The translations under genes and the position numbers were made by a program. Shown here piece after piece: positions 7,921 through 34,193 of a stretch of DNA of 34,930 nucleotides. The DNA comes from Deferribacterales bacterium. Lineage in GTDB: Bacteria > Chrysiogenota > Deferribacteres > Deferribacterales > Geovibrionaceae. Below the pieces are notes generated by a model, which worked only from the letters and a program-made list of their open reading frames with translations, was not told where the DNA came from and ran no database searches. Numbering within the stretch: position 1 is the stretch's first letter; every line of letters begins with the position of its first letter. The stretch is taken from positions 1-34,930 of the forward strand of contig JBFWJG010000023.1 of the NCBI GenBank assembly GCA_050253335.1. Direction: 5' to 3'.

Positions 7921-7961
7921 TAAGCCGTTGCGCATGAAGCGCCAGATGAGATCCTTCGTCC

Positions 7962-8186
7962 TTATAGTTCAGAAAAACCTGCGTCCTGCGGTACGCGCTC
8001 CGCGGGCACATCTGTCTTGCCGCAGAAAAGGGCACATCTAACCTGACCATTGTTCAGAAAAACCTGCGTCCTGCAGTTTTTCTTCACTCGCAGCCTGCGC
8101 GGTAAAACCGCTTGCTGCTCTGGCTGCGCTATGCGTTCCTCGCATTCGCTGCGGTACGCGCTCCGCGGGCACATCCATGTGCCTGA
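7962..8186 (-). repeat. Structured intergenic repeat element, locus A (one full unit plus an internally deleted unit)
   Basis: 8186-8052 aligns with 34013-34147 (about 15 substitutions and 2 indels in ~135 nt, counted by eye). Internal exact duplications: 7967-7989 = 8052-8074 and 7986-8012 = 8149-8175. Confidence 0.9.
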
Positions 8187-17805: not shown

Positions 17806-18732
17806 TCAATCCTTTAATTTCTTCAATCTCTCTGCCCTGCTTACGATTTCCTTGATGCGGAAACCGAAGTAGCCGTCGACTATGACCACCTCTCCGCGGG
17901 CTATTACCTTATTGTTTACAACAAGTTCAACAGGTTCGTCCGCCGATTCGTCAAGCTCCACTATGTTTCCTGAGCCCATAGTAAGTATATCCTTTAGAAA
18001 CATCCTTGTAGAGCCCATTTTTACACTTACCGGAACATCAATGTCCAGCAGCATGTCCATATTCTGATTGCCGCTGCCGGATGAAGAGCCCATGGAGCCC
18101 ATGGAATCGCGCATTCCGTCGTCCGGATCGTCAGGGAAGGTGAACGCGGAAGCGAAGTCCGGTTCATCGTCACTGCCGGCAGAAGAGGCCGCTCCCTTCC
18201 CCGAGAAAAGAGAAAGCAGATCTTCATCCATAAAAAAACGCATTGCCGTTTTGCGTTCGCCGATTGTAAATTTCATATCGGCTATAAAATAGCTCTCAGA
18301 CTGGAAGAGAGCGGAGTTTTCGTTTTTGAGCACATCGTCAACCTTAAAGCTGACTTTTTTGCCCAGTCTCTCCTCAATGGGAACGCTCAGTGACGCCAGA
18401 AGCTGTTGACAAAGCTCCTTCACGGCATCCGGATCGTCCTCTCCCAGCTCCTCCGTGCCTTCTGAATCCATCATAAGCATCAGAGATGCCAGCATTGTTA
18501 TGTCTTTTGTATAAAAAAACAGCCCTGCGTCAAAACCCGACATTTCCTCAGTGTGGGAAACGGCTGTATGCGTCTCGTACCCATACATAAGCTCTTCCGC
18601 TCCGCCCGCATATGCATCGGACAGAGAGATGCTTATCTCTTTATCAAACATGCTGCCGAAGGTTGAGGCAAACATGTCGGTTATCACTCCTGTAAAAGCG
18701 GCGTATCTGCCTTTATCCAGTTCTTTCCTCAT
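17806..18732 (-). CDS. fliY: Flagellar motor switch protein FliY/FliN (N-terminal CheC-like part plus C-terminal FliN domain)
   Basis: C-terminal SpoA/FliN domain (LLDIDVPVSVKMG, ARGEVVIVDGYFGFRI) with a ~200 aa N-terminal extension. Confidence 0.85.
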   Translation of the reverse strand: MRKELDKGRYAAFTGVITDMFASTFGSMFDKEISISLSDAYAGGAEELMYGYETHTAVSHTEEMSGFDAGLFFYTKDITMLASLMLMMDSEGTEELGEDDPDAVKELCQQLLASLSVPIEERLGKKVSFKVDDVLKNENSALFQSESYFIADMKFTIGERKTAMRFFMDEDLLSLFSGKGAASSAGSDDEPDFASAFTFPDDPDDGMRDSMGSMGSSSGSGNQNMDMLLDIDVPVSVKMGSTRMFLKDILTMGSGNIVELDESADEPVELVVNNKVIARGEVVIVDGYFGFRIKEIVSRAERLKKLKD

Positions 18733-19723
18733 TACCTTCTTCCGTTATTATTTCATTTATCCGCACAGCCTTGCGCACGCCGAGCGTGCCGATATGACCG
18801 TAAAACTTCTTTTTGTTGTTGATAAAGATGTCTGACGGCGTGCCCGCCTTAACATCCATCATAACCAGATCCCCCTCATGGAGATTCATAATCTCCTCAA
18901 TGGTAAGGGTCGTCCGCCCTATGGAGGTGCGGAAGGGAATCTTTATTTCCTCAAGCATGTCGAGAATGTGCTTCTCATTGTCGCCGAACTTGCCTTTTTT
19001 AGCGCCTATCAGCCAGTCCTGACTGCTTATTTTACCGAGAACAGGCTCAAGAACGATCGCCGGGATGCAGAGGTTCATCATGCCTGTCGCCTCTCCGAAC
19101 TTTATCTCAAACACCACAAGGATCACAACCTCGTTCTGTGCAACGATCTGAATGATATGCGGGCTGTTTTCGCTCAGTTCCTTCTTAAAGCGGATGTTCT
19201 GGACAATCTGCCGCCAAACCTCTTCAAGATCTTTAAGGATGAGGGTTATGATCCCCTCTATTATGTGCTGTTCAAGACTCGTAAGCTCACGGGTCTGGAA
19301 CAGGGGCTGGCCGGGACCGCCCAGAAGCTTGTCGACTATGGGGAAAACCAGCGAAGGGTTGATCTCCAGAACCGCGTTCCCCTCCATGGGTATCATGCTT
19401 ATAATATTGAAACTGGTAGGGTCAGGCAGAGACATAAGAAACTCGCCGTATGTCATCTGATCCACGCTCACCAGAGTTATATCCGTAATGGTTCTCAGAA
19501 AGTTTGACAGAGAAGAGGAGAAGTTGCGCGCAAACTTATCATGAAGGTTGCGGATCGAACGAAGCTGCTCCTTTGAAACCCTGTCCGGCCTGCGGAAATC
19601 GTAGACCGAAATCTTCTTAGGCACAAAGTCAAGCTGCTGTATCGAATTGTCCGATAAATCATCCTCCGTTGACACAGTGGACAATAGAGCATCAATCTCT
19701 TCCTGACTTAAAATATCTGCCAT
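18713..19723 (-). CDS. fliM: Flagellar motor switch protein FliM
   Basis: LSQEEIDALL, YDFRRPDRVSKEQLR, VDKLLGG and GMMNLCIP. Confidence 0.97.
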   Translation of the reverse strand: MADILSQEEIDALLSTVSTEDDLSDNSIQQLDFVPKKISVYDFRRPDRVSKEQLRSIRNLHDKFARNFSSSLSNFLRTITDITLVSVDQMTYGEFLMSLPDPTSFNIISMIPMEGNAVLEINPSLVFPIVDKLLGGPGQPLFQTRELTSLEQHIIEGIITLILKDLEEVWRQIVQNIRFKKELSENSPHIIQIVAQNEVVILVVFEIKFGEATGMMNLCIPAIVLEPVLGKISSQDWLIGAKKGKFGDNEKHILDMLEEIKIPFRTSIGRTTLTIEEIMNLHEGDLVMMDVKAGTPSDIFINNKKKFYGHIGTLGVRKAVRINEIITEEGNEERTG

Positions 19724-19914
19724 ATATTAATCCGTTACTCCGTTTATAACCGTATATTGTCCACAGGCGTTCCCACGAACGGGAACACGCCGTGCGAAGC
19801 GAAGCCGCATACATGCGGCGCGAGCGTGTGCGGAAAAAAGACAGGAAGTGCTTTTTTCCGTATCAGGACAGACAATAGAGCATCAATCTCTTCCTGACTT
19901 AAAATATCTGCCAT
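19680..19914. repeat. Exact 44-bp direct repeat (19680-19723 and 19871-19914) duplicating the fliM 5' end
   Basis: GACAATAGAGCATCAATCTCTTCCTGACTTAAAATATCTGCCAT occurs twice, flanking a 147-bp insert. Confidence 0.97.
19724..19870 (+). mobile_element. Structured non-autonomous element, locus B
   Basis: Core 19767-19870 shares the GTTCC..GGAAC hairpin, CGCCGTGCG, GCGAGCGTGTG and the terminal A-tract/T-tract hairpin with 33931-34012; flanked by a long direct repeat. Mobility is inferred. Confidence 0.7.
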
Positions 19915-19944
19915 TTGTTACCTTAAATGCTTTTTTTATTTAAT

Positions 19945-19980
19945 GAGAAACCCTTTTTTAACGAAAAAAAAGTGTTTCTC
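19945..19980. repeat. Imperfect AT-rich palindrome (REP-like)
   Basis: GAGAAAC-C-CTTTTTT...AAAAAAG-T-GTTTCTC inverted repeat in the cheB-fliM spacer. Confidence 0.5.
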
Positions 19981-19991
19981 AAACTCTTCCC

Positions 19992-20026
19992 AAAAAACTG
20001 CACTCTATAATTAAAAAGAGTACAGT
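19992..20026 (-). terminator. Probable terminator after cheB
   Basis: Minus strand ACTGTACTCT-N10-AGAGTGCAGT followed by a T-tract, starting just after the cheB stop. Confidence 0.6.
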
Positions 20027-20031
20027 GCCGT

Positions 20032-21126
20032 TTACCTGCAATGGAATATGATTCTGTTAAATATATCGTCCAAAGGAACGATTTCATCAGCTATTCCCGC
20101 TTCGACCACAGCGCGGGGCATTCCGTAAACTATGCTTGATTCCTCATCCTGCGCTATGACGCTGCCGCCTTTGAGCTTGAGAAGCTGGAGCCCTTTCTTT
20201 CCGTCTGCGCCCATTCCGGTCATTATAACGCCGAGGGCGTCTTTCCCCGCCACTTCAGCGACAGAAGCCGCAGTCACGTCCACACTGGGAACATGAAGGT
20301 GTCCGGCCGCATCGGGATTAAGCTCTGTAACGTAGTTTGCGCCTATCTTTTTTATCCTGAGGTGCTGTCCGCCCTTTGCGATGTAAACCGTGTTGGCCTC
20401 AAGCTTTTCATTTCCCTGAGATTCCACCACGTTCAGCTTGCTCAGCGAATTCAGCCTCTGGGCGAGCGACTGCGTGAAGTTGGGGGGCATGTGCTGAACC
20501 ACGACTATCGGAACGCCGATGTCGCCGGGCAGTCTCGGTATAACCTTCTGGAGAGACTGGGGGCCGCCTGTGGAGGTTCCTATCACAACAATCCTTTTGT
20601 GACCGGGTTTGGAGATGGTTCTCCCTGCGGCCGAAGGTGCGGAGGGAGCCTGAACCCCGCCGAACGGAGCGGAAGGCGCCGACGGCCTTGTGAATGATGA
20701 AGGGCGCAGTCTGCGCATAAGGTTTGTTCTTCTGGCGAACTGCTTTATCTTATTGCGCAGGTCGTCCTCTATGTTCATGACGCCGAAGCTGGCGAATGAT
20801 TTCTCTTTCGGAATGAAGTCCACGGCGCCCAGATCAAGGGCTTTCATTGTGGCTTCCGCGCCCTCTGTGGTAAGCGAGCTGACCATAATGACGGGCAGAG
20901 GGTTTTCGCTCATTATTTTTTCAAGGGCGCTCAGTCCGTCCATTCTGGGCATCTCGATATCGAGGGTCATGACATCGGGTTTAAGGTTCTTAGCCATCTC
21001 AACCGCGTCCAGACCGTTCCGCCCCTGACCGATTATCTCAATTTCGGAATCCTTGGCGAGCATGGATTCAATGGCTTTTCTCATAAATGCGGAATCATCA
21101 ACAATAACAACTTTGATTTTATTCAT
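20032..21126 (-). CDS. cheB: Chemotaxis protein-glutamate methylesterase CheB
   Basis: REC (VDDSAFMR, TLDIEMP) plus esterase motifs GTSTGGP, QHMP, PSVD, MTGMGADG and VYGMP. Confidence 0.97.
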   Translation of the reverse strand: MNKIKVVIVDDSAFMRKAIESMLAKDSEIEIIGQGRNGLDAVEMAKNLKPDVMTLDIEMPRMDGLSALEKIMSENPLPVIMVSSLTTEGAEATMKALDLGAVDFIPKEKSFASFGVMNIEDDLRNKIKQFARRTNLMRRLRPSSFTRPSAPSAPFGGVQAPSAPSAAGRTISKPGHKRIVVIGTSTGGPQSLQKVIPRLPGDIGVPIVVVQHMPPNFTQSLAQRLNSLSKLNVVESQGNEKLEANTVYIAKGGQHLRIKKIGANYVTELNPDAAGHLHVPSVDVTAASVAEVAGKDALGVIMTGMGADGKKGLQLLKLKGGSVIAQDEESSIVYGMPRAVVEAGIADEIVPLDDIFNRIIFHCR

Positions 21127-21859
21127 AGAACTCTTTCAGCCTCCTTTTGAGTTTTGTCACGGCCGCAGAGTGGATTTGCGAAACCCTCGATTCTGTGATA
21201 TTCAGAACCTCTGCAATCTCTTTCATGGTAAGTTCTTCGTAGTAGTAGAGAGTAATGGCATATTTCTCTTTCTCGGGGAGGCTGTCTATCTCCTCGCCGA
21301 GTCTTTCTATGAGCTTGTTCTTCACTGCTTCGTCTTCCGGAGTGAGCCCTTTGCTTTTTATGAAATCGATCAGGTTGCTCTCGCCTTCGCCGCCGACAGA
21401 CTCATCAAGGCTGAGAAGCTTGTCATTATCCTGAAGCTCAAGAAGGCGGTAGACCTCCTTCGCCTCGAAGTCGCTTCCTGCGACTATTTCCTCCACGGAA
21501 GGGCGTGCACCCTGCTCACGGTAGGTTCTTTCTATGAAGGCCTCAAGCTGTTTAAGCCTTGTGCGCACGTTGCGGGGAAGAAAGTCGAGGCTCCTCAGAG
21601 TATCGAGGATTGAGCCCTTTATTCTTCTCTCGGCAAAGGTGTAGAAATTAACATTTCTGTCCTTGTCAAAGCGGTCCATACTTTCTATCAGACCCACGCA
21701 GGCCGAGGAATAAAGGTCATCAAGATCAACGCTGTCAGGAAGAGACGCACTCATACGGATAACCCAGGATTTTATCCTGGGCATGAACTCCTGAATAATT
21801 TTCTCCCTCTCTTCAGGGGAAAATCTGTTTACAGCGCCGCCTGCCTCATAGTGCATCAA
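21119..21859 (-). CDS. fliA: RNA polymerase sigma-28 factor FliA/WhiG
   Basis: DLDDLYS, RIKGSILDTLRSLD and LYYYEELTMKEIAEVLNITESRVSQIH; follows flhF-flhG. Confidence 0.96.
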   Translation of the reverse strand: MMHYEAGGAVNRFSPEEREKIIQEFMPRIKSWVIRMSASLPDSVDLDDLYSSACVGLIESMDRFDKDRNVNFYTFAERRIKGSILDTLRSLDFLPRNVRTRLKQLEAFIERTYREQGARPSVEEIVAGSDFEAKEVYRLLELQDNDKLLSLDESVGGEGESNLIDFIKSKGLTPEDEAVKNKLIERLGEEIDSLPEKEKYAITLYYYEELTMKEIAEVLNITESRVSQIHSAAVTKLKRRLKEFYE

Positions 21860-22059
21860 AGTATCTTCCTGTAGTTAATCATAATCTTGTCTATGTAGAG
21901 GAAAAGTTTTTCGGTCACGTAATAAATAATGAAAAACATTATAATATCCCTCGTCACATAAGTCAATTTTACCTCAAGCAGAAAGAACTTGTAAACAAAT
22001 GAAGAAACAAAGGCAACAGTGGCCAGCATTAATGCCAGTTCCCTGTGGAGGAAGTTCAT
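21856..22059 (-). CDS. Small two-TM hypothetical protein
   Basis: 67 aa hydrophobic ORF overlapping both flhG and fliA by 4 bp, which suggests translational coupling. Confidence 0.7.
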   Translation of the reverse strand: MNFLHRELALMLATVAFVSSFVYKFFLLEVKLTYVTRDIIMFFIIYYVTEKLFLYIDKIMINYRKIL

Positions 22060-22901
22060 TTAAACACCCCCCTGAGAAGGCTGTACAGCCCCTCCTTGCG
22101 GGTGTTTTCGGCGGGGAGCCCCAGTATATTTCTGGCTATGTTGTAAATATCCCGGGAGTACGCGCCGTTCTGGTTTATTTCGCATACGGGCTTCTGAAAT
22201 TTCACGGAGCTAATAACCTGCTTGTCCTCCCGCAGATGCCCGAGAAGGTCAAGCTCAACATCGAGAAACTTCTTCGCAACGTTTTTCATGCTCATATAAA
22301 TATTTTTCACACCGTTCACATCGTCCACCCTGTTGAGCACAAAGCGGATGCGGTTTATGCCGTGGTCGAAGTGAACCACTTTCATAAAAGCATAGGCATC
22401 AGTAATAGCCGTGGGTTCCGGCTGGGTGATGACAATAACAGTGTCTGCTATGGCGGCGAATTTTGTCACAGTTTCGGATATGCCTGCGCCGGTATCGAAC
22501 AGAATATAATCGTAAGCTCCGTCAAGGCCTACGAATATTTCCACAATCTTTTCAAACTCGCTCTCGCTGAGGTTGGTCAGGTCGGAAAATCCGCTGGAGG
22601 CGGGGATCACGTCAAAGCCGTAAATATCTTTTTTTATTACGTTTTCTATCTCCGCTTCGCCCTGCATATATTTTCTGATGGAAGCGGTCACGGTGAGATT
22701 AAGCAGTATATCAACATTGGCGAGCCCTAAATCCGCATCGAAAACAAGAACTTTTTTCCCCATTTTCGCAAGCCAGTAGGCAAGGTTTACCACAAAGTTG
22801 GTCTTGCCGACCCCTCCCTTGCCGCTGGAGACGGAAATATACTTTGCCCGCCGCTTTTTATCCCATGCTTTTCGTCTTAAATTGTGCGCCTGATCTGTCA
22901 T
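22056..22901 (-). CDS. flhG: Flagellar number regulator FlhG/FleN (MinD-like ATPase)
   Basis: DQAHNLR N-terminal motif, SGKGGVGKTN, DADLGLANVD, DTGAGI and PEPTAITDAYA. Confidence 0.95.
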   Translation of the reverse strand: MTDQAHNLRRKAWDKKRRAKYISVSSGKGGVGKTNFVVNLAYWLAKMGKKVLVFDADLGLANVDILLNLTVTASIRKYMQGEAEIENVIKKDIYGFDVIPASSGFSDLTNLSESEFEKIVEIFVGLDGAYDYILFDTGAGISETVTKFAAIADTVIVITQPEPTAITDAYAFMKVVHFDHGINRIRFVLNRVDDVNGVKNIYMSMKNVAKKFLDVELDLLGHLREDKQVISSVKFQKPVCEINQNGAYSRDIYNIARNILGLPAENTRKEGLYSLLRGVFK

Positions 22902-24235
22902 CTTTCACTCCAGAACCCCGGAATATCCCTGAGGATCTGACTAGCAATCTTCCTGCCATCGGGAATCTCCATGTCATCAGGGACATTCTGACCCGTGGAA
23001 AGAAGAAGAACTGGTGTTTTCTTGCGGATGGGCAGGTTCACCATCGGCCCGAAGTATTTTGTTTCGTCCAGCTTGGTGAAAACAACATATTCCGGCATGA
23101 GTGCGCCGTAGTTTTCGAAAGTTTCCGCCATTTCGGCGTGGTTGCTGCTCATGGACATGACAAGGGCGACGGTCATCCTGTCCCCTGCGCTGAGGAATCT
23201 GCGGAGATCACCTATCTGTTCCGTGTCGAACTGGCTTCTGCCCATGGAATCCACAAAGACGTAGTCATAGCCTTCCGTGCGGGCGAGTATCGCCTGAAGT
23301 TCCTCTGGGCTTGAAGCCACCTGAAGAGGGATATCCACTATCTCGGCGTATGTCTTGAGCTGTTCCACTGCGCCTATCCTGAAATTGTCTATGGTGATGA
23401 GGCTGACTCTTTTTTTAAGTTTGAGAGAGAGATTAGCGGCGATTTTTGCCACTGTGGTGGTTTTCCCCACACCAGTAGGACCCACAAAGGCGACTATCTT
23501 CCTGTTGAGGGAAGAAAAATAATCCTTCTCGATGGGGATGAGATCCCCGAGAAGCTGAACAATCAGGTTGCGTATCTGGCTTCTGGTAAGCCCCGCCGTG
23601 GCGCGTTTTTCTATGCGTTTGAGAAATTTATATGCGATAACGTCATCCACGCCGTTCTTCACCATAAGAGAGTAAAACTCTTTGAGCTGCTCCGGCAGGT
23701 CGACTACTATATTTTCGGTGAGTGCGCTCTTCATCTCAAGCATCTGCTTTTTGATTTCGGCGACATCGGAAATAAGGCTCTCGAAGCGGTTCAGCCCGAG
23801 GGTGTTAATGAGCTCGGCCAGCTTGTCCACACCGCCCTGCTGATAGGTTTCGGGCTTGGCTTGATTAGCCTGTCTGGATGTTTCCGATCTGTAGACTTTT
23901 TCCTGCGCGGGGCGGCGTATGTCCGCGGCGAAGGTTTCCGGTCTGAAATCGTCCTCGTCTTTCGGTGCTGCCATTTTGCCGAAGCCGTTGTAGGTGGAGT
24001 CTGCCCCCTGAGGCTTGGGTCTCGCGGCCTTTGCCTTGGCTGTTTTTTCCATGAGAATGCGCTCGTCCATGTCCACCGCGGCGGTGACCTCAAGGAGGGG
24101 TTTGGAGAAAAGACCGAAGCTGTTGTTTTTAACGACTTTTCTGGTGGAGAGAATCACAGCCTCGGAGCCGAGCTCCTGCTTGATCATTCTCATCGCTTCA
24201 GCCATGTCGTATGCTTCGTACTTCTTTATCTTCAT
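22898..24235 (-). CDS. flhF: Flagellar SRP-family GTPase FlhF
   Basis: GPTGVGKTTTVAKIAA, DNFRIGAVEQL, DSMGRS, TKLDET and GQNVPDD. Confidence 0.96.
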   Translation of the reverse strand: MKIKKYEAYDMAEAMRMIKQELGSEAVILSTRKVVKNNSFGLFSKPLLEVTAAVDMDERILMEKTAKAKAARPKPQGADSTYNGFGKMAAPKDEDDFRPETFAADIRRPAQEKVYRSETSRQANQAKPETYQQGGVDKLAELINTLGLNRFESLISDVAEIKKQMLEMKSALTENIVVDLPEQLKEFYSLMVKNGVDDVIAYKFLKRIEKRATAGLTRSQIRNLIVQLLGDLIPIEKDYFSSLNRKIVAFVGPTGVGKTTTVAKIAANLSLKLKKRVSLITIDNFRIGAVEQLKTYAEIVDIPLQVASSPEELQAILARTEGYDYVFVDSMGRSQFDTEQIGDLRRFLSAGDRMTVALVMSMSSNHAEMAETFENYGALMPEYVVFTKLDETKYFGPMVNLPIRKKTPVLLLSTGQNVPDDMEIPDGRKIASQILRDIPGFWSER

Positions 24236-26313
24236 ATCTTAATCTCCAGCATGCCGAGGCTTTCAATCCTGACATTCTCGCTTATTTCATTGTGGGATAT
24301 AACATTAATGTTCTTGATAAACTTCTCCGCGAAGCGCCTCATGGCAGAGCGCAGCGGCGGCGAAATAACAAGAACGGGGCTGAAGCCTTTCTGAGCCACC
24401 TCATCCACCTTGGCAATCATTTTTGAAAGTATCTTCTGCGCCGCAAGGGGATCTATAAGTATATCCTTTCCTTCGTCCCCCTGCTGAAGATTTTTCGCAA
24501 GAAGCTGCTCAATCTCAGACGGCAGGGTAAAAACATAAAGAGCGCCGTCCGGCGCGAGGAGGCTTTCGGTTATCTGCCTTCTTAAAGAAAGACGCACCCT
24601 CTCCGTGAGGTTTTCCACATCCTTGGTCTGCACGCCGTAAGCGGCCAGAACCTCCAGAATGCTCCGCAGGTTGCGGATGGAGATCCTCTCCCTCAGCAGA
24701 TTCTGAAGCACCCTGTTCACTGTGCCGAGATCCAGTATATTGGGGATGAGATCCTCCACCAGCTTGGGATACTTCTCTTTCACGCCGTTTACAAGCTCAA
24801 GGGTTTCCTGTCTGCCTATAAGCTCATTGGCATAGGACTTGATGACTTCTGTCAGGTGGGTCGCAATCACAGTGGCGGGGTCGACTATGGTAAAGCCGTT
24901 AAGCTCGGCCTTCTCCTTCTGCCTTTCATCCACCCACTTGGCGGCAAGCCCGAAGGCGGGCTCTTTGGTGGCGATGCCGTCTATTTTGTCCACGTTTCCT
25001 TCAGGGTTCATCACCAGAAACTTGTCGGGAAAGATTGTTCCGGTGGCGACTTTCACTCCTTTGAGGAGTATGTTGTATCCGTTTCCGTCAAGCTGGAGAT
25101 TGTCCCTTATCCTCACAGGGGGGACAATGATCCCCATCTCAAGAGCTATCTGCTTGCGTATTGATTTTATGCGGTTAAGAAGGGTTCCTCCCTGCGCGGA
25201 ATCCACAAGGGGGATAAGACTGAAACCTATCCCAAGCTCCATTGTGTCCATCTCCAGAAGTTCCCTTACCTCTTCCTCCTCGGTTGCGGGCTTGCGCTCC
25301 TCCTCCTGTTCCTCCTCCTCTTCCTCGGGCTTTTCCGCCGCTTTTTTTGCGGAATGCGCTATGGCAAAGAAAATTCCTGAAAGAAAAAGAAAAGGGAAAA
25401 AGGGCATACCGGGAACGACCGCGAAGAAAAGAAGTATGCCGGCAGTGATATAGAGCACCCTTGTGCTGCGGAAAAGCTGTCTGGCAAGCTGGCCGCTGAG
25501 ATCCTTGTCTCCGCCGCCCGCACGGGAAACTATAAGACCAGCCGCGGTAGAGACAATAAGCGAGGGAATCTGGCTGACCAGACCGTCCCCCACGGTGAGT
25601 ATGGTGAACACGCCTGCCGCCTCGCCGACATCCATTCCGTTCTGGAGAACGCCAATGGCAAGACCGCCGATTATGTTTATGCCTGTAATAATAAGACCCG
25701 CCACGGCATCGCCGCGGACAAACTTGCTCGCACCGTCCATGGCTCCGTAATAGTCCGCTTCCTGCTGAATTTTAGCTCTCTTCGCCTTCGCCCCCGCCTC
25801 GTCTATGAGCCCCGCGTTAAGATCCGCGTCGATGCTCATCTGCTTTCCGGGCATAGCATCCAGTGTGAATCTGGCCGCCACTTCCGCTATACGGCCGGAA
25901 CCTTTGGTGATAACCATAAAGTTAATCAGTACAAGAATCAGGAATATGATAACGCCCACGGCATAGTTCCCGCCGACCACATACTGCCCGAAGGCCTGAA
26001 TAACATGCCCCGCCGCTCCTTCCCCTTCTGAACCGTTAAGGAGAATCCTCCTTGTTGAGGCAACGTTTAGGGAGAGCCTGAAAAGGGTTATTATCAGAAG
26101 AACCGAAGGGAAGGTGGAGAACTTCAGCGGTTCATCGGCGTAGATAGCCACCATGAGAATGAGAACAGAGAGAGCTATGCTGCATACAAGGAGAAGATCC
26201 AGAAACACGGCAGGCATCGGCAGAATCATGACTATGATTATACCGATAAAAAACAGACCGAAGCCTATCTCGCCCTGCTTTACCATTTTTGTCATAAGAC
26301 CGGACTGTGCCAC
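24232..26313 (-). CDS. flhA: Flagellar export protein FlhA
   Basis: RIAEVAARFTLDAMPGKQMSIDADL and GAMDGASKFVRGDA; GTG start. Confidence 0.97.
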   Translation of the reverse strand: MAQSGLMTKMVKQGEIGFGLFFIGIIIVMILPMPAVFLDLLLVCSIALSVLILMVAIYADEPLKFSTFPSVLLIITLFRLSLNVASTRRILLNGSEGEGAAGHVIQAFGQYVVGGNYAVGVIIFLILVLINFMVITKGSGRIAEVAARFTLDAMPGKQMSIDADLNAGLIDEAGAKAKRAKIQQEADYYGAMDGASKFVRGDAVAGLIITGINIIGGLAIGVLQNGMDVGEAAGVFTILTVGDGLVSQIPSLIVSTAAGLIVSRAGGGDKDLSGQLARQLFRSTRVLYITAGILLFFAVVPGMPFFPFLFLSGIFFAIAHSAKKAAEKPEEEEEEQEEERKPATEEEEVRELLEMDTMELGIGFSLIPLVDSAQGGTLLNRIKSIRKQIALEMGIIVPPVRIRDNLQLDGNGYNILLKGVKVATGTIFPDKFLVMNPEGNVDKIDGIATKEPAFGLAAKWVDERQKEKAELNGFTIVDPATVIATHLTEVIKSYANELIGRQETLELVNGVKEKYPKLVEDLIPNILDLGTVNRVLQNLLRERISIRNLRSILEVLAAYGVQTKDVENLTERVRLSLRRQITESLLAPDGALYVFTLPSEIEQLLAKNLQQGDEGKDILIDPLAAQKILSKMIAKVDEVAQKGFSPVLVISPPLRSAMRRFAEKFIKNINVISHNEISENVRIESLGMLEIKI

Positions 26314-26318
26314 TTAAA

Positions 26319-27380
26319 CTACCTTCTCATATGCTTAAATTTCCCTACAAGGGCAAGTATTTCTGCTACTGCTTTATACAAATTCTCAGGTATTTCATCA
26401 CCTATGTCAACTGTTTTGAAAAGCGTTCTGGCAAGGGGCGGGTCCTCATGGATAAGCACTCCGTTCTGTTTCGCGAGTTCCCTGATCCGAAGCGCCAGAA
26501 GCCTCTGCCCCTTGGCAACCACCATCGGAGCCTTGTCCTCTCCGGGGCGGTATCTGAGGGCAACCGCGAAGTGTGTCGGGTTTGTCACCACAACATCGGA
26601 CTTAGGAACGTCAGACATCATCCTCTTGCGCGCCATCTCCCTCTGCATGCTTCTTATTTTCTGCTTGATAAGTGGATCCCCCTCCATCTGCTTGAACTCC
26701 TCCTTGACCTCCTGCTTTGTCATCTTGAGGTCTTCGGTGTTCTGCCATTTCTGATACATGAAATCGATGATCGCAAGTATCAGTACAAGGACGCCTATCT
26801 TGAGGAAGAGCTCAAAAATCAGCATGAGAAAAAAAAGTATGCTGTCTATGGGTTCGGAATCACCGAGGCGGAGGATTGTGGGAATCTTCCCTTTTATTAT
26901 GTAAAAGGAGGCAAGCCCGACAACGAATATCTTGAACAGCGATTTAAAAAGCTCCACCAGACTGCGTTTGGAAAATATCCTGCCAAAGCCTTTTATTGGA
27001 TCAAGCCTGTCAAGCTTAACGGCAAGCGCCTTCGGACTGAAAAGAAAGCCGAACTGCATTATATTGGAGGCGATATTCACCACGAACAGCATCAGCAGCA
27101 CAGGAGCGAGAAGCTTCGTCATGAAAACAATGACAAAGAACATAAGCTTTATGGTGCTTTTCTCGTCCAGCACATAATCAAGGGACATGAATGATTCACG
27201 CATGAACCGCATCAGCTCGTCCGCCATTGTGGAAATATAGAAATACATGAATATTGCAGTGGCAACAAAAGTCACGGCTGCGCTGAGCTCCCTTGTCTTG
27301 GCTACGTTGCCTTCTTCTCTGGCTTTCTCAATCCGCCGCCCCGTGGGCTGTTCGGTCTTTTCCGAATCGTTGTCAGCCAT
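26319..27380 (-). CDS. flhB: Flagellar export protein FlhB
   Basis: EKTEQPT, EGDPLIK and the autocleavage motif NPTH. Confidence 0.97.
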   Translation of the reverse strand: MADNDSEKTEQPTGRRIEKAREEGNVAKTRELSAAVTFVATAIFMYFYISTMADELMRFMRESFMSLDYVLDEKSTIKLMFFVIVFMTKLLAPVLLMLFVVNIASNIMQFGFLFSPKALAVKLDRLDPIKGFGRIFSKRSLVELFKSLFKIFVVGLASFYIIKGKIPTILRLGDSEPIDSILFFLMLIFELFLKIGVLVLILAIIDFMYQKWQNTEDLKMTKQEVKEEFKQMEGDPLIKQKIRSMQREMARKRMMSDVPKSDVVVTNPTHFAVALRYRPGEDKAPMVVAKGQRLLALRIRELAKQNGVLIHEDPPLARTLFKTVDIGDEIPENLYKAVAEILALVGKFKHMRR

Positions 27381-28162
27381 CAGTTACCGCCGAAAATATG
27401 AAACAGGGTCGCAACCCGCATGAAATACTCATGAAGAAGCTTCTCGAAAACAATGAAGAAATAGTTCAGACTCAGGCTCAGTATGGAGAGCCCCACCGCT
27501 ATCTGGAGAGGAAAACCCACTATCATAAGGTTGAGCTGAGGCACAAGCCTGCCCATTATCCCCATTATAACGTGAGTGCAGAGCATCACCACGAATATGG
27601 GAGCCACTATTTTAAGCGCAGTAAGAAAGGATGCGCTGAGCATTTTTGTGATGTAGAGAAAGCCCTCCGCCCTGAAAGTGAAAACCCCCAGAGGTACGGC
27701 ACGGAATGATTCGCTCATTGCCCCTATCACCATAAGGTGTCCGCCCAGACCTATGAAAAAGAGAATCATCGCTATGTTTTTAAGCTGGGCTATGATGGAA
27801 AGCTGCATGTTCATGGAAGGGTCAAAGGAGTTCACCATGCTGAAGCCCATCTGAAAACCCGCAAGTTCGCCCCCTATCTGCACACCCACAAAGAGAAGCT
27901 GAGCCATCATTCCCGTGGCGATACCGAGAAGAATTTCCTTTGCTATGAGCAAAATAAGCAGAAGCGGATGGATATCGGAAAGCCCTATGGACTGCACATT
28001 GGGAAAGATCACAATGGCAAGCACAAAGGAGGCGGCAACTTTTACATTGTCCGGAATAAGCTGGCTGCTGAACATGGGGGCGCTGAAAACTATGCCCGAA
28101 ATGCGGAAGAAAACCATAATAAAAGTCAGCAGCAGATCCGTCTGATAAAGGAACTCAAACAT
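27380..28162 (-). CDS. fliR: Flagellar export protein FliR
   Basis: Multi-TM protein with RISG...APMFS, GFQMGFS...FDP and PQLNLMIVGFP; coupled to flhB. Confidence 0.95.
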   Translation of the reverse strand: MFEFLYQTDLLLTFIMVFFRISGIVFSAPMFSSQLIPDNVKVAASFVLAIVIFPNVQSIGLSDIHPLLLILLIAKEILLGIATGMMAQLLFVGVQIGGELAGFQMGFSMVNSFDPSMNMQLSIIAQLKNIAMILFFIGLGGHLMVIGAMSESFRAVPLGVFTFRAEGFLYITKMLSASFLTALKIVAPIFVVMLCTHVIMGIMGRLVPQLNLMIVGFPLQIAVGLSILSLSLNYFFIVFEKLLHEYFMRVATLFHIFGGN

Positions 28163-28167
28163 ACGGC

Positions 28168-28196
28168 AGTGTAATACTTCCGCCCTTTTTACACAA
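28168..28196 (-). promoter_or_regulatory. Candidate sigma70 promoter immediately before the fliR ATG
   Basis: TTGTGT-N17-TACACT, then 5 nt and ATG; no clear SD. Confidence 0.45.
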
Positions 28197-28217
28197 GGCT
28201 AAAGCTTTTCTGCCGGC

Positions 28218-29021
28218 CTACTCTCCCGAAGCCATGCGGGAGCTGAGTTCTTTTTTCTGATTTACCCTGTGTTCATGAGATGACAGGCGGATGTACCGCT
28301 TTTTCATCCAGTAAACCCCCAGAAGATCGGCCATGCCGACCCACAGGCGGCTGTTTATGCCCGCACCGTATTTGCTGATTCCTTTGTTTCTCGGCCTGTG
28401 CCGAACAGGCATTTCAGCAACTGTGTATCCTGCCATCTGCACCAAAGCGGGAAAAAATCTGTGTGCGTTGCGGAAAAAACGGAACCCCTCCAGACACTCC
28501 CGTCTGAAGCCTCTGCTTGAGCACCCCACATCGCTTATATTATCCCCGAGAAGACGTGAGCGCAGCCTGTTTGCCAGACGGCTGGAGAACCTGCGGACAA
28601 AGTTATCGTTTCTTTCGGCGCGTACCCCGCACATCATGTCCACTCCAAGCTCCGTCATCTTTTCCAGAATAAGGGGGATATCCGCCGGGTCATTCTGTCC
28701 GTCCCCGTCAAGGGTGAAGATATACTTTCCGCGGGCTGCACTGAACCCCGCAAAAAGCGCGGCCGACTGCCCCATGTTTCTGCCGAGATGCACTGCTCTG
28801 AAAAAAGGAATCTCAGCCCACCTGTTTATTTCCTCACCCGTGCCGTCGTCTGAGCCGTCATTAACGAGAACAGCCTCCCAACTCTGCTTCAGTGAAGATT
28901 CAAGCACAGAGCGGAGTTCTCCGCATACGGTGCTGATATTTTCGGCTTCATTATAAAACGGAATTACCACTGATATTACAGGTTCAGTTAATTTTTCCTG
29001 TTTATTACGTATACCTTCCAT
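28218..29021 (-). CDS. Glycosyltransferase family 2 (ArnC/polyprenol-phosphate sugar synthase-like)
   Basis: SVVIPFYNE, VNDGSDDGT, GQSAALFAG, DGDGQNDPADIP and HRFFPAL. Confidence 0.92.
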   Translation of the reverse strand: MEGIRNKQEKLTEPVISVVIPFYNEAENISTVCGELRSVLESSLKQSWEAVLVNDGSDDGTGEEINRWAEIPFFRAVHLGRNMGQSAALFAGFSAARGKYIFTLDGDGQNDPADIPLILEKMTELGVDMMCGVRAERNDNFVRRFSSRLANRLRSRLLGDNISDVGCSSRGFRRECLEGFRFFRNAHRFFPALVQMAGYTVAEMPVRHRPRNKGISKYGAGINSRLWVGMADLLGVYWMKKRYIRLSSHEHRVNQKKELSSRMASGE

Positions 29022-30586
29022 TGTTTACCCGTCTCCGTTGAATATGTTTTCAGCAGTTCGGCCGAAAGAGCTTCCCTTTCCAAAAGTTCCCTGTTCAATT
29101 CTCCGAGTGTTATAAAAACTGCCGACTTTTTTGTTTTGTTATCAATAAACTCGTTCAGAGGACGAACCTTTCTTCCCGCCGCCCAAATCTCTTTTATGCT
29201 GAGACTGCCGTAAAAATCCCCATCATAGGCTGATGCCGCATCTGTCCTTAAACCCTCCAGAACCCTGAAGCCCTTGCCGGAAACAAAAACTTCCGCCGCT
29301 GGGACTGCGACAATAAGGGCGATGCAGAACACGGCAGCCGACAGAGGAATATATTTATCCGCTTCCCGTCTGATAAAACTGCCTGCCAGAAGAATAAGCG
29401 CATAAATTCCTGATGTTTCGGCTATTATGAAAAAAACAGCGCCGTATGGACTGAACCATACCTGAACCGCGGCAGCAGCAGCAAAAACGAAAACCGCAAT
29501 TGAGAATGAGATTCCGCTCCATAACCCGAGAACAATATAATCTGCCGTCTTTTTTTCAAACTTCCCTGTGAGCAGACTCAGGTACTCTCCCGTCATCAGT
29601 GCGCAGGGGATAATAACAGGAAGAAGGTAGCGGTCTTTCTTTTCAGGTATGACCGAAAGAAGAATGAGGGAAACGAATATCCAGATCAGATAAAAAGCTG
29701 CCCTCCGCCTGCCGAGGCGTAAGGAAGAATACCCCGGAACAAGCAGAGGGAGCAAAAACACAGCCCAGAGACCGGACATGAGCGGAAACTGGAAATAGTA
29801 CCAGAAGGGTTTAACATGCCTATCCGCCCACGCTGAAGCCTCTGCGGCGGCAGTGCCGAGAGCGGACTGTGTTTCATGAAAATATATATACAACGGCCAC
29901 AGGAGGGATAGCGCGGCCGCAACAGCCAGAAAAACAGTCAGGCCGTAAAAGCTGACGGGCTTGAGCCTGAAAAGATAAAAGCCCGCGGCAAGAAAAGGCA
30001 CAAGCAGTCCGTAAAAAGCCACGGGGCCTTTGCTCATAAACGAAAGAGCGGCAAAAAGACCCGCAAGGGCGTACATAAGCATCCTTTTTCCCGGGAGGCA
30101 GGCAGACAAAGCGCCCAGATACGCCGCTATGGATGCTGTCATAAAAGCCTGCGCGTAGATATCCCATGTGTTTTTGCGGGTCATGTAGAAAAAAAGGTAG
30201 CTAGTGCTCAGAACCAGAACAGAATAGAAAGCGGACTTTCCTGAACCGGTGATATGAAAGGATATGAAATATGCTCCCGCAAGCATGACAAGCCCTGCGA
30301 GTGCAGACGGAATACGGCTTGCGGAAAGGTTATTGTCAGTTCCCGAAAGCCGGAACGCAAAAGCGGTAATCCATGTGGGCAGAGGCGGTTTGGCGATTCT
30401 CAGTTCCCCGTTGAGCGTGGGGAAAACCCAGTTTCCGTCTTGAACCATCTCCCTTGCGGTAACATAGTTGCGTGCCTCCATAATATCCACCGAAAGCACG
30501 TCGCGGTGAACAAAGGCTCCAGTGTAAACCGCAAGAAGCAGAACAAAAATCAGGCTTTTGGTTAAAGAAAATCCTTCATCTCTCAT
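28988..30586 (-). CDS. ArnT/PMT-like (GT-C) lipid-carrier-dependent glycosyltransferase
   Basis: MEARNYVTAREM, PTLNGELRIAKPPLPTW, SKGPV and PEKKDRYLLP; many TM helices. Confidence 0.88.
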   Translation of the reverse strand: MRDEGFSLTKSLIFVLLLAVYTGAFVHRDVLSVDIMEARNYVTAREMVQDGNWVFPTLNGELRIAKPPLPTWITAFAFRLSGTDNNLSASRIPSALAGLVMLAGAYFISFHITGSGKSAFYSVLVLSTSYLFFYMTRKNTWDIYAQAFMTASIAAYLGALSACLPGKRMLMYALAGLFAALSFMSKGPVAFYGLLVPFLAAGFYLFRLKPVSFYGLTVFLAVAAALSLLWPLYIYFHETQSALGTAAAEASAWADRHVKPFWYYFQFPLMSGLWAVFLLPLLVPGYSSLRLGRRRAAFYLIWIFVSLILLSVIPEKKDRYLLPVIIPCALMTGEYLSLLTGKFEKKTADYIVLGLWSGISFSIAVFVFAAAAAVQVWFSPYGAVFFIIAETSGIYALILLAGSFIRREADKYIPLSAAVFCIALIVAVPAAEVFVSGKGFRVLEGLRTDAASAYDGDFYGSLSIKEIWAAGRKVRPLNEFIDNKTKKSAVFITLGELNRELLEREALSAELLKTYSTETGKQWKVYVINRKN

Positions 30587-30592
30587 GCCCCC

Positions 30593-30624
30593 TTTATACA
30601 GGACTTAAATGAAGATTTGATGAA
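30593..30624 (-). promoter_or_regulatory. Candidate OmpR/PhoB-type tandem box and -10 for the arnT-like gene
   Basis: Minus strand TTCAT-N6-TTCAT (11-bp period), 10 nt, TATAAA, 6 nt, ATG. Confidence 0.55.
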
Positions 30625-30636
30625 CACGGATTTTTT

Positions 30637-32052
30637 TCAGAAAGCAGATAAAACCACAGTCACAGTTACCGATTCCCCCTGCACGCTTTCCACTGTTATC
30701 TCACCCTTATGCAGATCAATAATTCTTTTAACAATGGCAAGCCCCAGCCCCGAACCGCCGTAACGGGAGGAACGTGACTCCTCCACTCTGTAAAACTGCT
30801 CAAACACCCTTCCGACTGATTCGGGCGGGATGCCCGCCCCTGTATTAAAAATTTTTATTTCAGCTTTTTCCCTTGTCCTCGTTCCGGTTATGCGGATCAC
30901 TCCGCCGTCCGGCGTGTATTTTACTGCATTGTCCAATATATTTGAAAATGCCCTGAACAGCTTATCATAATCGCCCCTGACGCTGAGCCCGCCGCTTAAT
31001 TCCGAAAAAATATTTATCCCCCGTCCGGAGGCAAGAAATGAGTAATCCTCTTTCAGCAGTCCCAGCATTTCCCCAAGATCCGCCTTCTCAAGCTTTACAC
31101 CGCTGTCCAGTTCAAGGGAGGAAAGGCTGAGTATGTTTTTCACCAGTCTCTCCATGCGGTGAACCTGCTCGGAAAGCCTTCCGGCATCATCTGCTGATAT
31201 ACTGCCGGATGTATTAAACTCATCCGTTATAAGGCGCATAATGCTCAACGGGGTTTTCAGCTCGTGGGAGGCATCAGCGATTAGCCTCTTCTGCTTGTCA
31301 AAAGCATTCTCAAGGCGGTCAAAAACACCGTTGAGGGTCAGTGCCAGAGCATTGAACTCATCCGATGCCCCTGCCTTCTCCTTCAGGGGTATCCTCAGGT
31401 TCAGCTGCCGTTCGGTAATGTTCCTTGTGCGCGCGTTCATAATCCTTACCGGACGGAGGATATACCCTGCTATAATGTAGCTGACCGCGGTAAGAACTAT
31501 TACCGAAAGAAGGAGTCCCGCCGCCACGCTGAGAACCAGCTCGGTTATCTCATCGCTGACTCTCTCTGCGGACAAAGCTGCGTACACCACATAACTCCGC
31601 TTACCGCCGTTTTCCTGTCCGGAACCCCCCTTATCCTCTTCAAGCAGACCTGATGTCTGTTTTTCTATGACAAACCGGCGGACTCTGAAAGCCGTTTTCC
31701 CACCGCTGTCATGTTCTATATATGAAAGCTCTTCAGGCACATAAGCAAAAACGAGGCTTTTTCTGCTGCTGTTTTCGGGAATATCTATTATTCCGGCTAT
31801 ATGCGAAACATAAAGAGGTTCCTGTTCACCCTGACCGTATATCTTAATCCAGTATCTCCTGCTGTCCTTCATTCCGGAAGCTCCTGAATGATCAAGAACC
31901 GTCACCGATTCAAATGCAACAGTGCGGAGTTCTGCGTCCATAACCCTGAAAGGCTGTTCGAGCATTTCAAAAAGAACAGATACGGAGAAAATAAGCGCTG
32001 AAACAAGCCCTGCGGAGGCAATCAGTATTGAAATCTTGAGTCTGACGCTCAT
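30637..32052 (-). CDS. HAMP-domain sensor histidine kinase
   Basis: Two TM segments, HAMP, ADASHELKTPL, NILDNAVKY and GGSGLGLAIV. Confidence 0.95.
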   Translation of the reverse strand: MSVRLKISILIASAGLVSALIFSVSVLFEMLEQPFRVMDAELRTVAFESVTVLDHSGASGMKDSRRYWIKIYGQGEQEPLYVSHIAGIIDIPENSSRKSLVFAYVPEELSYIEHDSGGKTAFRVRRFVIEKQTSGLLEEDKGGSGQENGGKRSYVVYAALSAERVSDEITELVLSVAAGLLLSVIVLTAVSYIIAGYILRPVRIMNARTRNITERQLNLRIPLKEKAGASDEFNALALTLNGVFDRLENAFDKQKRLIADASHELKTPLSIMRLITDEFNTSGSISADDAGRLSEQVHRMERLVKNILSLSSLELDSGVKLEKADLGEMLGLLKEDYSFLASGRGINIFSELSGGLSVRGDYDKLFRAFSNILDNAVKYTPDGGVIRITGTRTREKAEIKIFNTGAGIPPESVGRVFEQFYRVEESRSSRYGGSGLGLAIVKRIIDLHKGEITVESVQGESVTVTVVLSAF

Positions 32053-32732
32053 TCCTGCCCGTCCTTGATTATATAACCCACGCCCCGTATGGTTTTGACG
32101 ACTGACTCGCCGTCTGAAGCGTTTATCTTTTTCCTGAGATTTTTGATATGAACATCCATGAAATTGGACATGCTGAACGGCTCAAAATCATCCCCCCACA
32201 CATGCTCCGCCAGACTGAAGCGGGTCACCGCGCGGTTTTTATTATACATGAGAAACTCCAGAATAGAGAATTCTCTCTGGGTAAGCTCAACCGGTTTCCC
32301 CTCAACCGTAACCTCTCTCTTCACAGTGTCCAGAGACAGACTGCCCGCACAGAGCAAAGACGAGCTCTGTCCGCCGGAACGCCTGAGAAGCGCCCTGACC
32401 CTTGCCAGAAGTTCGTCCGTGGAAAACGGCTTTGTCAGATAATCATCCGCGCCGGAATCAAGGCCTTTGATTTTATCATCCGTTCCGGTTCTGGCAGTGA
32501 GCATAAGAACCGGAGAACTGATACCCATATTTCTTGTTTCTCTCAGCACTCCGAAACCGTCAAGCTTGGGCAGCATTATATCCAGAATAATAAGGTCATA
32601 AGGAACTTCCGCCGCTCTGTCCAGCGCCTGCTCGCCGTCATAGGCACAGTCCGCCGAATATTTGTGAGCCTCAAGAGTTCTACGCAGCTGTTCATTAAGT
32701 TCGGGTTCATCTTCAACAATCAGTATTCTCAT
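32049..32732 (-). CDS. OmpR-family response regulator
   Basis: ILIVEDE, LDIMLP, GADDYLTKPF and the winged-helix VHIKNLRKK/TIRGVGY. Confidence 0.96.
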   Translation of the reverse strand: MRILIVEDEPELNEQLRRTLEAHKYSADCAYDGEQALDRAAEVPYDLIILDIMLPKLDGFGVLRETRNMGISSPVLMLTARTGTDDKIKGLDSGADDYLTKPFSTDELLARVRALLRRSGGQSSSLLCAGSLSLDTVKREVTVEGKPVELTQREFSILEFLMYNKNRAVTRFSLAEHVWGDDFEPFSMSNFMDVHIKNLRKKINASDGESVVKTIRGVGYIIKDGQE

Positions 32733-32896
32733 TTTTTCACCGTTTAACGAATATAACTGTTTTCAGCCTCTTTTGAAATATGAAGAAGAGTCCGAAACCC
32801 GCACCGGAAGCAAAAAACTCTTTTAATTGCTTTCCTGATATGCGATATTCAGGATTAAACGGTTTTATAAAACAAAAAGAACGGCAGATACAAATA

Positions 32897-33928
32897 ATGA
32901 CAAAAAAAAGGTTAACAAAACAGGACGCCGTGCGGATGCTCGAAACGGCCGACCTGTATGAACTCGCCCGCGAAGCGGACGGAATAAGAAAATTGCTCCA
33001 CCCTGAGGGTGTTGTTACTTTTGTAATAGACAGAAACATAAACTACACAAATATATGCACATGCAAATGCTCTTTTTGTGCCTTTTACCGTGAGGCGGAT
33101 GAAGAGGGCGCTTATGTTCTTGATAAAGAAGAACTCAAAAAGAAGATAGACGAGACAAAAGCCCTCGGAGGCACGCAGATTCTCCTTCAGGGCGGGCTTC
33201 ACCCGACCTTGGGCATTGAGTTTTATGAGGAGATGCTCTCCTACATGAAATCTCTCGGGGTATGGCTGCACGCTTTCAGTCCTCCTGAGGTGCACCACAT
33301 AGCGAAGATAAGCGGGCTTTCCGTGGCAGAGACCATCTCAAGGCTTGTTAAGGCGGGGATGGACTCAATCCCCGGCGGCGGGGCGGAGCTTCTGGTGGAC
33401 TCGGAAAGAGTGCGCATCAGCCCGAACAAAATCCTCTCCGATAAGTGGCTTGGGGTTATGGAAGAGGCGCACAGACAGGGGCTCAAAACCAGTGCCACCA
33501 TGATGTTCAAGGCTGATGACGAATATGAGAAAATAGCGGAGCATTTTGACAGAATCCGCACACTTCAGGATAAAACAGGCGGTTTCACGGCGTTTATCCC
33601 CTGGCCTTTTCAGCCTGACAACACAGAGCTGGGCGGGCAGAAGGTCAGCCCTGTGGAATATTTAAGGATATTTGCCGCAGCGCGCATTTATCTGGACAAC
33701 ATAAAAAACCTTCAGGTCTCATGGGTGACTCAGGGACCCAAGATCGGGCAGACTGCCCTTCGCTTCGGCGGAAACGACTTCGGCAGCCTGATGATAGAAG
33801 AGAATGTCGTCGCCTCCTGCGGAGCATCCTTCCGCATGAGCGTTGAGGAGATTGTTCACAACATCGAACGCGCCGGCTTCAAAGCCGCTCAAAGAGACAT
33901 GGAATATAATATAGTCAGACGCTTTTAA
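32897..33928 (+). CDS. mqnC: Cyclic dehypoxanthine futalosine synthase (radical SAM, futalosine menaquinone pathway)
   Basis: VTFVIDRNINYTNIC, CxxxCxxC, LLQGGLHP, SIPGGGAE, SWVTQGPK and FGGNDFGSLMIEENVV. Start placed at ATG 32897 (MTKKRL). Confidence 0.88.
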   Translation: MTKKRLTKQDAVRMLETADLYELAREADGIRKLLHPEGVVTFVIDRNINYTNICTCKCSFCAFYREADEEGAYVLDKEELKKKIDETKALGGTQILLQGGLHPTLGIEFYEEMLSYMKSLGVWLHAFSPPEVHHIAKISGLSVAETISRLVKAGMDSIPGGGAELLVDSERVRISPNKILSDKWLGVMEEAHRQGLKTSATMMFKADDEYEKIAEHFDRIRTLQDKTGGFTAFIPWPFQPDNTELGGQKVSPVEYLRIFAAARIYLDNIKNLQVSWVTQGPKIGQTALRFGGNDFGSLMIEENVVASCGASFRMSVEEIVHNIERAGFKAAQRDMEYNIVRRF

Positions 33929-34193
33929 TACAGTTCCATGGACGGAACTGCGCCGTGCGGTGCGAGCGTGTGAAGAAAAACAACAGAGACGCTGGTTTTT
34001 CTGAGCTATCAGTCAGGCACAGGGATGTGCCCGCGGAGTGCGTACCGCAACGAACGTGAGGAACGCAAGCGAAGCCTGAGCAGCAAGCGGTCTTACCGCG
34101 AAGGCTGCGTGTGAAGAAAAACAACAGGGATGTTGGTTTTTCTGAACTATAAGTCAGACAAGACATGGAATATAATATAGTCAGACGCTTTTA
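33895..34193. repeat. Exact 33-bp direct repeat (33895-33927 and 34161-34193) duplicating the mqnC 3' end
   Basis: AGACATGGAATATAATATAGTCAGACGCTTTTA occurs twice, flanking a 233-bp insert. Confidence 0.97.
33928..34160 (+). mobile_element. Structured non-autonomous element, locus C (two tandem units: 33931-34012 B-type, 34013-34160 A-type)
   Basis: Homology to loci A and B; both units end in GTGTGAAGAAAAACAACAG..GGTTTTTCTGA; flanked by a long direct repeat. Mobility is inferred. Confidence 0.75.

Follow-up and report, generated by a model that had tools for sequence, protein, structure and literature searches.

Two short non-coding inserts in a genome of the Deferribacterales (family Geovibrionaceae; assembly GCA_050253335.1, contig JBFWJG010000023.1), one at the start of fliM and one at the end of mqnC, are each enclosed by a long, exact direct repeat of the host gene. 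We identified both as copies of a genus-wide, protein-free family of repeats built from three hairpins, in which the 3' end of the element is usually joined to a GA dinucleotide of the target. This joining reaction is the solid result of our analysis of the window (the whole stretch of DNA, 34,930 nucleotides), and it is needed both by the explanation that we prefer and by a rival in which the host sequence was duplicated later. The best explanation, to which we give somewhat less than an even chance, is that nick-primed copying of a single-stranded template inserts the repeat, and that recombination between repeats then reshapes the site.

The two inserts and their direct repeats

At fliM, positions 19680-19723 recur exactly at 19871-19914 (44 bp), and at mqnC positions 33895-33927 recur exactly at 34161-34193 (33 bp). 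Mismatches bound both repeats on both sides, and the longest direct repeat found within 400 bp in 100 shuffled windows measured 15 bp. The exact host repeats of 44 and 33 bp that were reported in the original prediction are thus confirmed, as is the intactness of both genes, each of which matches its profile (TIGR01397 for fliM, TIGR03699 for mqnC). The inserts had also been called related and hairpin-rich. They do belong to one family and fold better than shuffled sequences (z -3.0 to -4.7 on the forward strand), but they represent two subtypes of unequal composition: 19724-19870 is a 45-nt linker followed by a type A unit, while 33928-34160 is a type A unit without its middle hairpin followed by a type B unit. 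No terminal inverted repeats such as a classical MITE (miniature inverted-repeat transposable element) would carry were common to the inserts (local scores 4-6 over 25 nt). The features are listed below; G000 denotes the genome studied, and G001, G002 and G003 (the last complete) are three congeners.

18713..19723, reverse strand: fliM, intact; the left repeat copy is its start
19680..19723, forward strand: left 44-bp repeat, equal to the first 44 nt of fliM (reverse strand), with GA at its start
19724..19768, forward strand: 45-nt linker, carrying the present fliM ribosome-binding site (GGAG on the reverse strand at 19738-19741)
19769..19786, forward strand: hairpin 1 of the type A unit, its GGA loop mutated here and intact in G002
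19788..19829, forward strand: conserved core CGCCGTGCGNAGCGAAG, hairpin 2 (19804-19819) and GCGAGCGTGT
19830..19870, forward strand: hairpin 3, whose loop is CAGGAAG, and the 3' tail with its junction to GA
19871..19914, forward strand: right 44-bp repeat, the older fliM start, with the old ribosome site beyond it at 19915-19924
19914-19744, reverse strand: 56-codon open reading frame (ORF) that opens at the spare fliM start, crosses the element and ends 3 nt before the new ribosome site
32780..33928, forward strand: mqnC, intact, stop codon TAA
33895..33927, forward strand: left 33-bp repeat, the final codons of mqnC
33931..34015, forward strand: type A unit that has lost hairpin 2
34016..34160, forward strand: type B unit, with a GGA hairpin, the longer core, a second GGA hairpin and a tail ending in ..AAGTCAGACA
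34161..34193, forward strand: right 33-bp repeat; the G that follows makes TAG, the stop codon in all three congeners
7956..8183, reverse strand: third family site of the window, absent from the original prediction, a type B unit and partial units behind cheR

The linker at fliM occurs once in the genome and is likely a diverged part of a longer duplication. The 56-codon ORF could provide translational coupling from the spare start. No host duplication was found at the third site, behind cheR.

A family of three-hairpin repeats

Type A units consist of hairpin 1, the conserved core, hairpin 2, GCGAGCGTGT, hairpin 3 and an A-rich tail; type B units have a longer core. Hairpins 1 and 3 are tipped by CA(N)GGANG loops, and five-base loop forms are also present. 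Across 90 distinct full units, Watson-Crick pairing amounts to 90-100% in the stems of hairpins 1 and 2, where covariation is heavy and many columns contain all four pair types, and to 69-97% in the stem of hairpin 3, whose register is noisier. When counting is anchored, G-T pairs make up only 4 per 540 positions in each of hairpins 1 and 2. The core contains GCGNAGC with a free N (44 A, 41 C, 26 G, 23 T), a motif described as a very stable DNA mini-hairpin (PMC13037366).

BLAST searches with the inserts returned 85 loci in the genome, 37 of which have an exact repeat of at least 14 bp, many of them internal to arrays, compared with 2 of 300 random sites. Counting by motif gave 155 cores of type A and 20 of type B, where the reversed genome has 2 and 0, and 157 units in 99 clusters were validated. 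The exact core is present in all four genomes of the genus, with 111, 122, 92 and 267 copies (267 in G003). Among 68 genomes of the phylum it was otherwise limited to 2-3 copies in each of two sister-genus genomes and to two chance matches. Twelve viral core matches and the single matches in genomes G032 and G033 lack the hairpins, and among 89 loci from a scan covering 35 of 64 parts, none of the genome matches outside the Deferribacterales combined both GGA hairpins. Plasmid and phage sequences yielded no match to the family, and neither did Rfam in the window. In the literature searched, with queries free of organism names and few subscription papers, there was no description of the repeat family or of the GA-junction rule. 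Upstream of fliM in G007, a genome from a genus without the exact motif, a CAGGATG hairpin accompanies a different core (locus L006), which may represent a diverged sister family. The notion of a real, dispersed, non-coding element without terminal inverted repeats and with no enzyme gene inside is supported.

A fixed 3' junction and variable duplications

Eighteen of the 99 clusters lie at contig edges, leaving 81 to be scored. Fifteen of these have a clean terminal host duplication, five have one with an element remnant behind it, seven have array-internal duplications only and 54 have none. Copies lacking flanking duplications had been named in the original prediction as evidence that would count against it, and this is partly the case, with host duplication of any kind at 27 sites and none at 54. 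In 400 kb of G003, 23 loci divide into 6 clean, 2 with a remnant, 2 array-internal and 13 without; in another relative the 23 loci gave 0, 1, 3 and 19, respectively. Over 44 loci, which include some element-tail and array-internal cases, the duplications measure 16-82 bp (median 42.5), in agreement with the long, unequal duplications at unrelated genes that had been proposed.

The 3' junction is fixed, with a tail that terminates near AAG(A/T)C(A/G) and is, as a rule, linked to a GA located 16-82 bp upstream: GA falls within the first 4 nt in 25 of the 44 duplications (20% in the background), the tail motif occurs in 40 of 73 clusters (against 14%), and it is followed by an upstream match of at least 10 nt in 15 of 40 cases and in 0 of 40 controls. 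The 5' junction is variable, the gap to the called element start being 0 in 27 of 44 loci and reaching 88 nt in others. Tandem arrays of units also occur, and where they consist of element only, the tail is joined to the GA in the loop of hairpin 1 itself. At several sites (G000 C26:4465, C41:5267-5641 and C79:7260; L055, L057) a target GATC or GATA corresponds to a junction copy in GC or GT instead of GA.

Gene-start cases favour duplication on arrival, above all C41 in G000. There, a 61-bp duplication allows a DUF1385 gene to restart in frame from the trailing copy, which is poorly explained by later duplication.

As a side observation, directly behind several trailing copies (19940-20000 in the window; L002-L004, L055, L068) lies an AT-rich palindromic segment of the GAGAAACCC..TTTT..GTTTCTC type, possibly a further repeat family.

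History of the sites

The fliM arrangement recurs in all three congeners, one of which is assembled as a single contig; G002 has it once, G001 and G003 twice. The two to three fliM copies per genome are identical within each of the four genomes, with two silent positions differing between genome pairs, and the linker is shared among the congeners. Therefore, fliM records one old event that has been homogenised since. The mqnC copies follow the same pattern, and copies that match within a genome yet differ between species must have been renewed after insertion. In an outgroup (L013) the context of the fliM start matches the right-hand copy. The original prediction had the repeat end exactly at the fliM ATG, and this is indeed the present boundary. 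However, the linker shares a ribosome-site remnant that lies beyond the ATG. The duplication therefore once extended past the start codon, and its neat end there is likely secondary, only the coding part having stayed identical.

The mqnC site has been more changeable. An orthologous empty site with a single repeat copy, as foreseen, exists in a close strain from another study (run X2; the data from all sequencing runs used here are contigs): the contig skips exactly 266 bp, keeps one repeat copy and has 11 differences over about 350 nt. Among the congeners, mqnC is empty in G001 and followed by an element without repeat in G002. In G003 the gene ends in the element, four units are present, and the repeats start at the same base with G003's own sequence. 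The GA start is likewise the same at a further site, where the repeat is species-specific and another species has a different unit type. Behind cheZ, the window is empty (16711-16736). In G003 (L062) this place is taken by a type B unit, accompanied by a 39-bp duplication of the cheZ end, and in L137 by a type A unit that lacks such a duplication.

A Mu-like prophage of G002 (L179:2080-3480; also L273) contains three family elements between late genes, one of them with a GA-junction repeat. These favour duplication on arrival and continued mobility.

Orientation, neighbouring genes and CsrA

Relative to the upstream gene, the GGA strand reads in the sense direction in 64 of 75 scorable clusters, with 44% expected and 24 contig-edge clusters left out, and in 41 of 49 co-directional gaps. 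This count replaces an earlier one of 56/76 that was based on crude ORFs. Any leading-strand bias of the elements is confounded with gene direction. Most neighbours are housekeeping genes, as we read them from their N-termini. CsrA is encoded in all five genomes tested, including element-free ones, and CsrA-type features are present, namely GGA hairpin loops on the transcribed strand together with a csrA gene. In transcripts, the GGA loops would be putative CsrA binding sites, and the RNA form may matter for retention of the element.

Search for an enzyme

None of nine nuclease, transposase or reverse transcriptase families tracks the repeat family. Reverse transcriptase (PF00078) had no match in G000, G002 or the complete G003 with its 267 cores, which speaks against the reverse-transcription route suggested in the original prediction; it is present in one of the four genomes of the genus, and no element lies within 1.5 kb of the reverse transcriptase genes in G001 and G010. 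Y1 transposase and TnpB, the enzymes expected of repetitive extragenic palindromes with their associated tyrosine transposases (REP/RAYT) and of IS200/605, were found in 0 of 4 genomes of the genus. The same was true of PF01609 (DDE_Tnp_1), of NF033559 and NF033551 (the IS1634 and IS1182 searches) and of PF01548 (IS110), these being the families covered. Y2 transposase (IS91/rolling-circle) scored 0/16, with the control likewise silent.

Four small GIY-YIG loci, the enzyme type of Ssn/SRM repeats, carry GTCA-type repeats and none has a unit of the GGA family. Two of the four genomes of the genus have DUF559 genes, which lie among CCCCCTT-type repeats; in G003 one GGA-family unit adjoins the gene. 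In relatives, CCCCCTT..AAGGGGG arrays and GTCA-type palindromes flank DUF559 and small GIY-YIG genes (L163, L164, L165; L171, L176-L178), and repeats of these two types often adjoin the GGA element. G000 has both types, yet their partner-like genes turned up in relatives and not in G000, so that absence of an enzyme is weak evidence.

Two HNH genes were considered. A small one is conserved also in the element-free G004 and has no element nearby. Another, encoding 253-261 amino acids, lies directly upstream of the element in G003 and at L231 (L225:973-1734, L231:177-962), between a gene with a zinc phospholipase C domain and a membrane protein gene; it is AT-rich and has a weak match to type IV restriction. 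No copy was found in G000, G001 or G002, and the same site lacks it in G000 (C1, about 18900) and at L105. With none of the six other homologues examined lying beside an element, it is a weak lead only, and viral contigs yielded one weak 22-residue match. Of 201 ORFs beside elements in relatives, 22 have no homologue in G000, and this HNH was the only nuclease among the 11 scanned in Pfam. Element sites may take up foreign genes.

How could the element insert?

In the explanation that we prefer, a nick opposite GA would prime synthesis on a single-stranded copy of the GGA strand, joining the fixed 3' end of the repeat to GA in the target. A second break at a variable distance downstream would duplicate the next 16-80 bases, and insertions directly inside a gene end or start could survive because the duplication rebuilds the gene. 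Later recombination between repeats would cause expansion, deletion and re-homogenisation, and units could exchange hairpins with other family members. The enzyme might be a host nuclease or polymerase, or a partner nuclease that was lost or is visiting. Nick-primed copying, which is established for non-LTR (long terminal repeat) elements, leaves a 3' end that is fixed, a 5' end and a duplication that both vary, and short homology to the target. DNA is more likely than RNA to be the template, because the stems are near-perfect, the mini-hairpin is present and reverse transcriptase is lacking. A bolder version, which we find rather doubtful, is a bacterial replicator akin to a short interspersed element (SINE) that lacks its own partner gene: a single-stranded unit of three hairpins that would rely on host enzymes for target-primed synthesis at GA sites, rebuild gene ends and scatter predicted CsrA sites through housekeeping operons.

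Several observations weigh against nick-primed copying. No enzyme was found for the family among those searched, the majority of scored G000 clusters (54/81) have no host duplication, and a clean terminal one occurs in none of the 23 loci of one relative. Of 20 terminal duplications, 5 have an element remnant behind the trailing copy. Matches anchored at the junction are long or else no better than chance, so that any decay of duplications must have proceeded by deletion. The empty mqnC allele of X2 could be an excision by recombination between repeats, and cross-species empty sites are too diverged to show clean duplication on arrival. The strong sense bias and the CsrA-type loops fit a role as RNA equally well. 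Finally, a strand asymmetry between G-T and A-C mispairs (26 vs 4 in hairpins 2 and 3, 3 vs 11 in hairpin 1) was not reproduced when counting was anchored.

The many sites without a duplication and the remnants lend weight to the main rival, later local duplication, which we consider a real possibility, if not a probable one. Here the element would arrive without a long duplication, its 3' end would rejoin an upstream GA to give a tandem of host tail plus element, and the last element would decay. Two thirds of sites without duplication, the seven G000 clusters with array-internal duplications only, the five with a remnant behind the trailing copy and the GA junction of element-only tandems all agree with this, as does mqnC, where G002 has an element but no repeat and the G003 gene ends in the element. 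Nonetheless, 15 G000 sites have a clean trailing copy, the DUF1385 gene start would require insertion inside the gene and a precise later excision, X2 has an exactly empty allele, and spread to new sites would be left unexplained. An RNA intermediate copied by target-primed reverse transcription, in effect a bacterial SINE, shares the non-LTR geometry and agrees with the sense bias (64/75). We nevertheless think it unlikely in view of the missing PF00078 matches, the distance of the G001 and G010 reverse transcriptase genes from any element, and the rarity of G-U pairs.

Import of gene tails is more improbable still. DNA of a related strain would recombine at the gene end and be resolved at the 3' end of the element, making the left copy foreign and the right copy old. 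This idea stays alive because of one low-depth contig of run X5, in which the left mqnC copy differs at 6 of 33 positions compared with 3 of 145 upstream (p = 0.0015), changes that we read as silent or conservative. Differences between copies are 13 silent to 10 replacement in 251 codons, in reading frames assigned automatically, which is not clearly above the 38% expected (p = 0.055). Moreover, many copy pairs are identical, and the X5 contig is single, has a depth of 3.4 and does not show the right copy. Very improbable, in our view, is a MITE mobilised by a DDE transposase of the IS1634/IS1549 or IS1182 kind, with duplications that are long and variable. IS1549 and IS1634 do make repeats of 8-514 bp (PMC2266710), but terminal inverted repeats are lacking here and PF01609, NF033559 and NF033551 had no match in any of the four genomes of the genus. 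An assembly artefact can practically be dismissed. The genome is in 142 contigs, many of which break at the repeat. Against an artefact, X1 contigs, which may be the source data, end at the mqnC repeat and show zero differences there, and the same arrangement at fliM is present in the three other genomes.

Comparison with known systems

The original prediction held that known elements make no such duplications, which is too strong given the 3-26 bp of YPAL/RU-2 in Yersinia (PMC2229807) and the range reported for IS1549/IS1634. YPAL/RU-2 is the closest parallel in behaviour: a small non-coding repeat with internal instead of terminal inverted repeats, variable duplication, co-transcription behind genes and no known enzyme (PMC2229807). 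By eye, its 168-bp unit contains two hairpins with AAGGA/ATGGA loops, so that GGA loops are shared without a common core (PMC2759123). The duplications of our repeat are longer (16-82 bp), and neither a GCGNAGC core nor a GA-junction rule appears in the YPAL/RU-2 passages. TwoAYGGAY (RF01731) is likewise multi-copy and intergenic, with two GGA-loop hairpins, strain-variable copy number and proposed CsrA binding (bioRxiv 10.64898/2026.09.22.753630; PMC4333381); in our family the GGA hairpins flank the core and hairpin 2 instead of standing side by side on one stem. The excerpted TwoAYGGAY descriptions mention no target duplications (bioRxiv 10.64898/2026.09.22.753630; PMC4333381), and the RF01731 covariance model gave 0 matches in G000 and none in the window, with control genomes also silent.

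The long variable direct repeats of IS1549/IS1634 are also of unexplained origin (PMC2266710), but those elements are autonomous and encode a transposase, whereas ours lacks an ORF and terminal inverted repeats, and the genus yielded no transposase of this kind. Hundreds of palindromic intergenic copies, tandem mosaics and likely recognition as single-stranded DNA are shared with the Ssn (GIY-YIG) system (PMC11893778) and, as generally known, with REP/RAYT. Unlike in these, no Y1 gene was found in the genus and small GIY-YIG genes are flanked by other repeats. To our knowledge, long duplications are not a described feature of REP/RAYT or Ssn repeats. Sponges of the CsrB/RsmZ type resemble the family in their GGA loops on hairpins and in the presence of CsrA (PMC4333381), and differ from it in being one small RNA instead of dispersed mobile copies inside transcription units, which have no Rfam match. 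Compared with a classical MITE, the duplication is 16-82 bp or none instead of short and of fixed length, and no cognate transposase was found among the families searched. Excerpts of three further papers (PMC10969869, PMC3184786, PMC11893778) add no mechanism for such repeats.

The family bears on the spread of enzyme-less bacterial repeats like YPAL and TwoAYGGAY and on the origin of long variable duplications. The insertion route is testable because the footprint is sharp (fixed 3' end, GA target, 16-82 bp), copies number in the hundreds, filled and empty alleles exist, and a complete genome gave no match to the reverse transcriptase and transposase families searched. The repeat also shows how gene ends can be invaded harmlessly and ribosome sites, possibly CsrA control too, be rewired. 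If true, a SINE-like route by host enzymes would also account for YPAL and further GGA-loop repeats that lack an explanation for their mobility. The repeat works like YPAL/RU-2 and shares GGA hairpins with TwoAYGGAY, a likeness to both that stops short of demonstrated membership in either.

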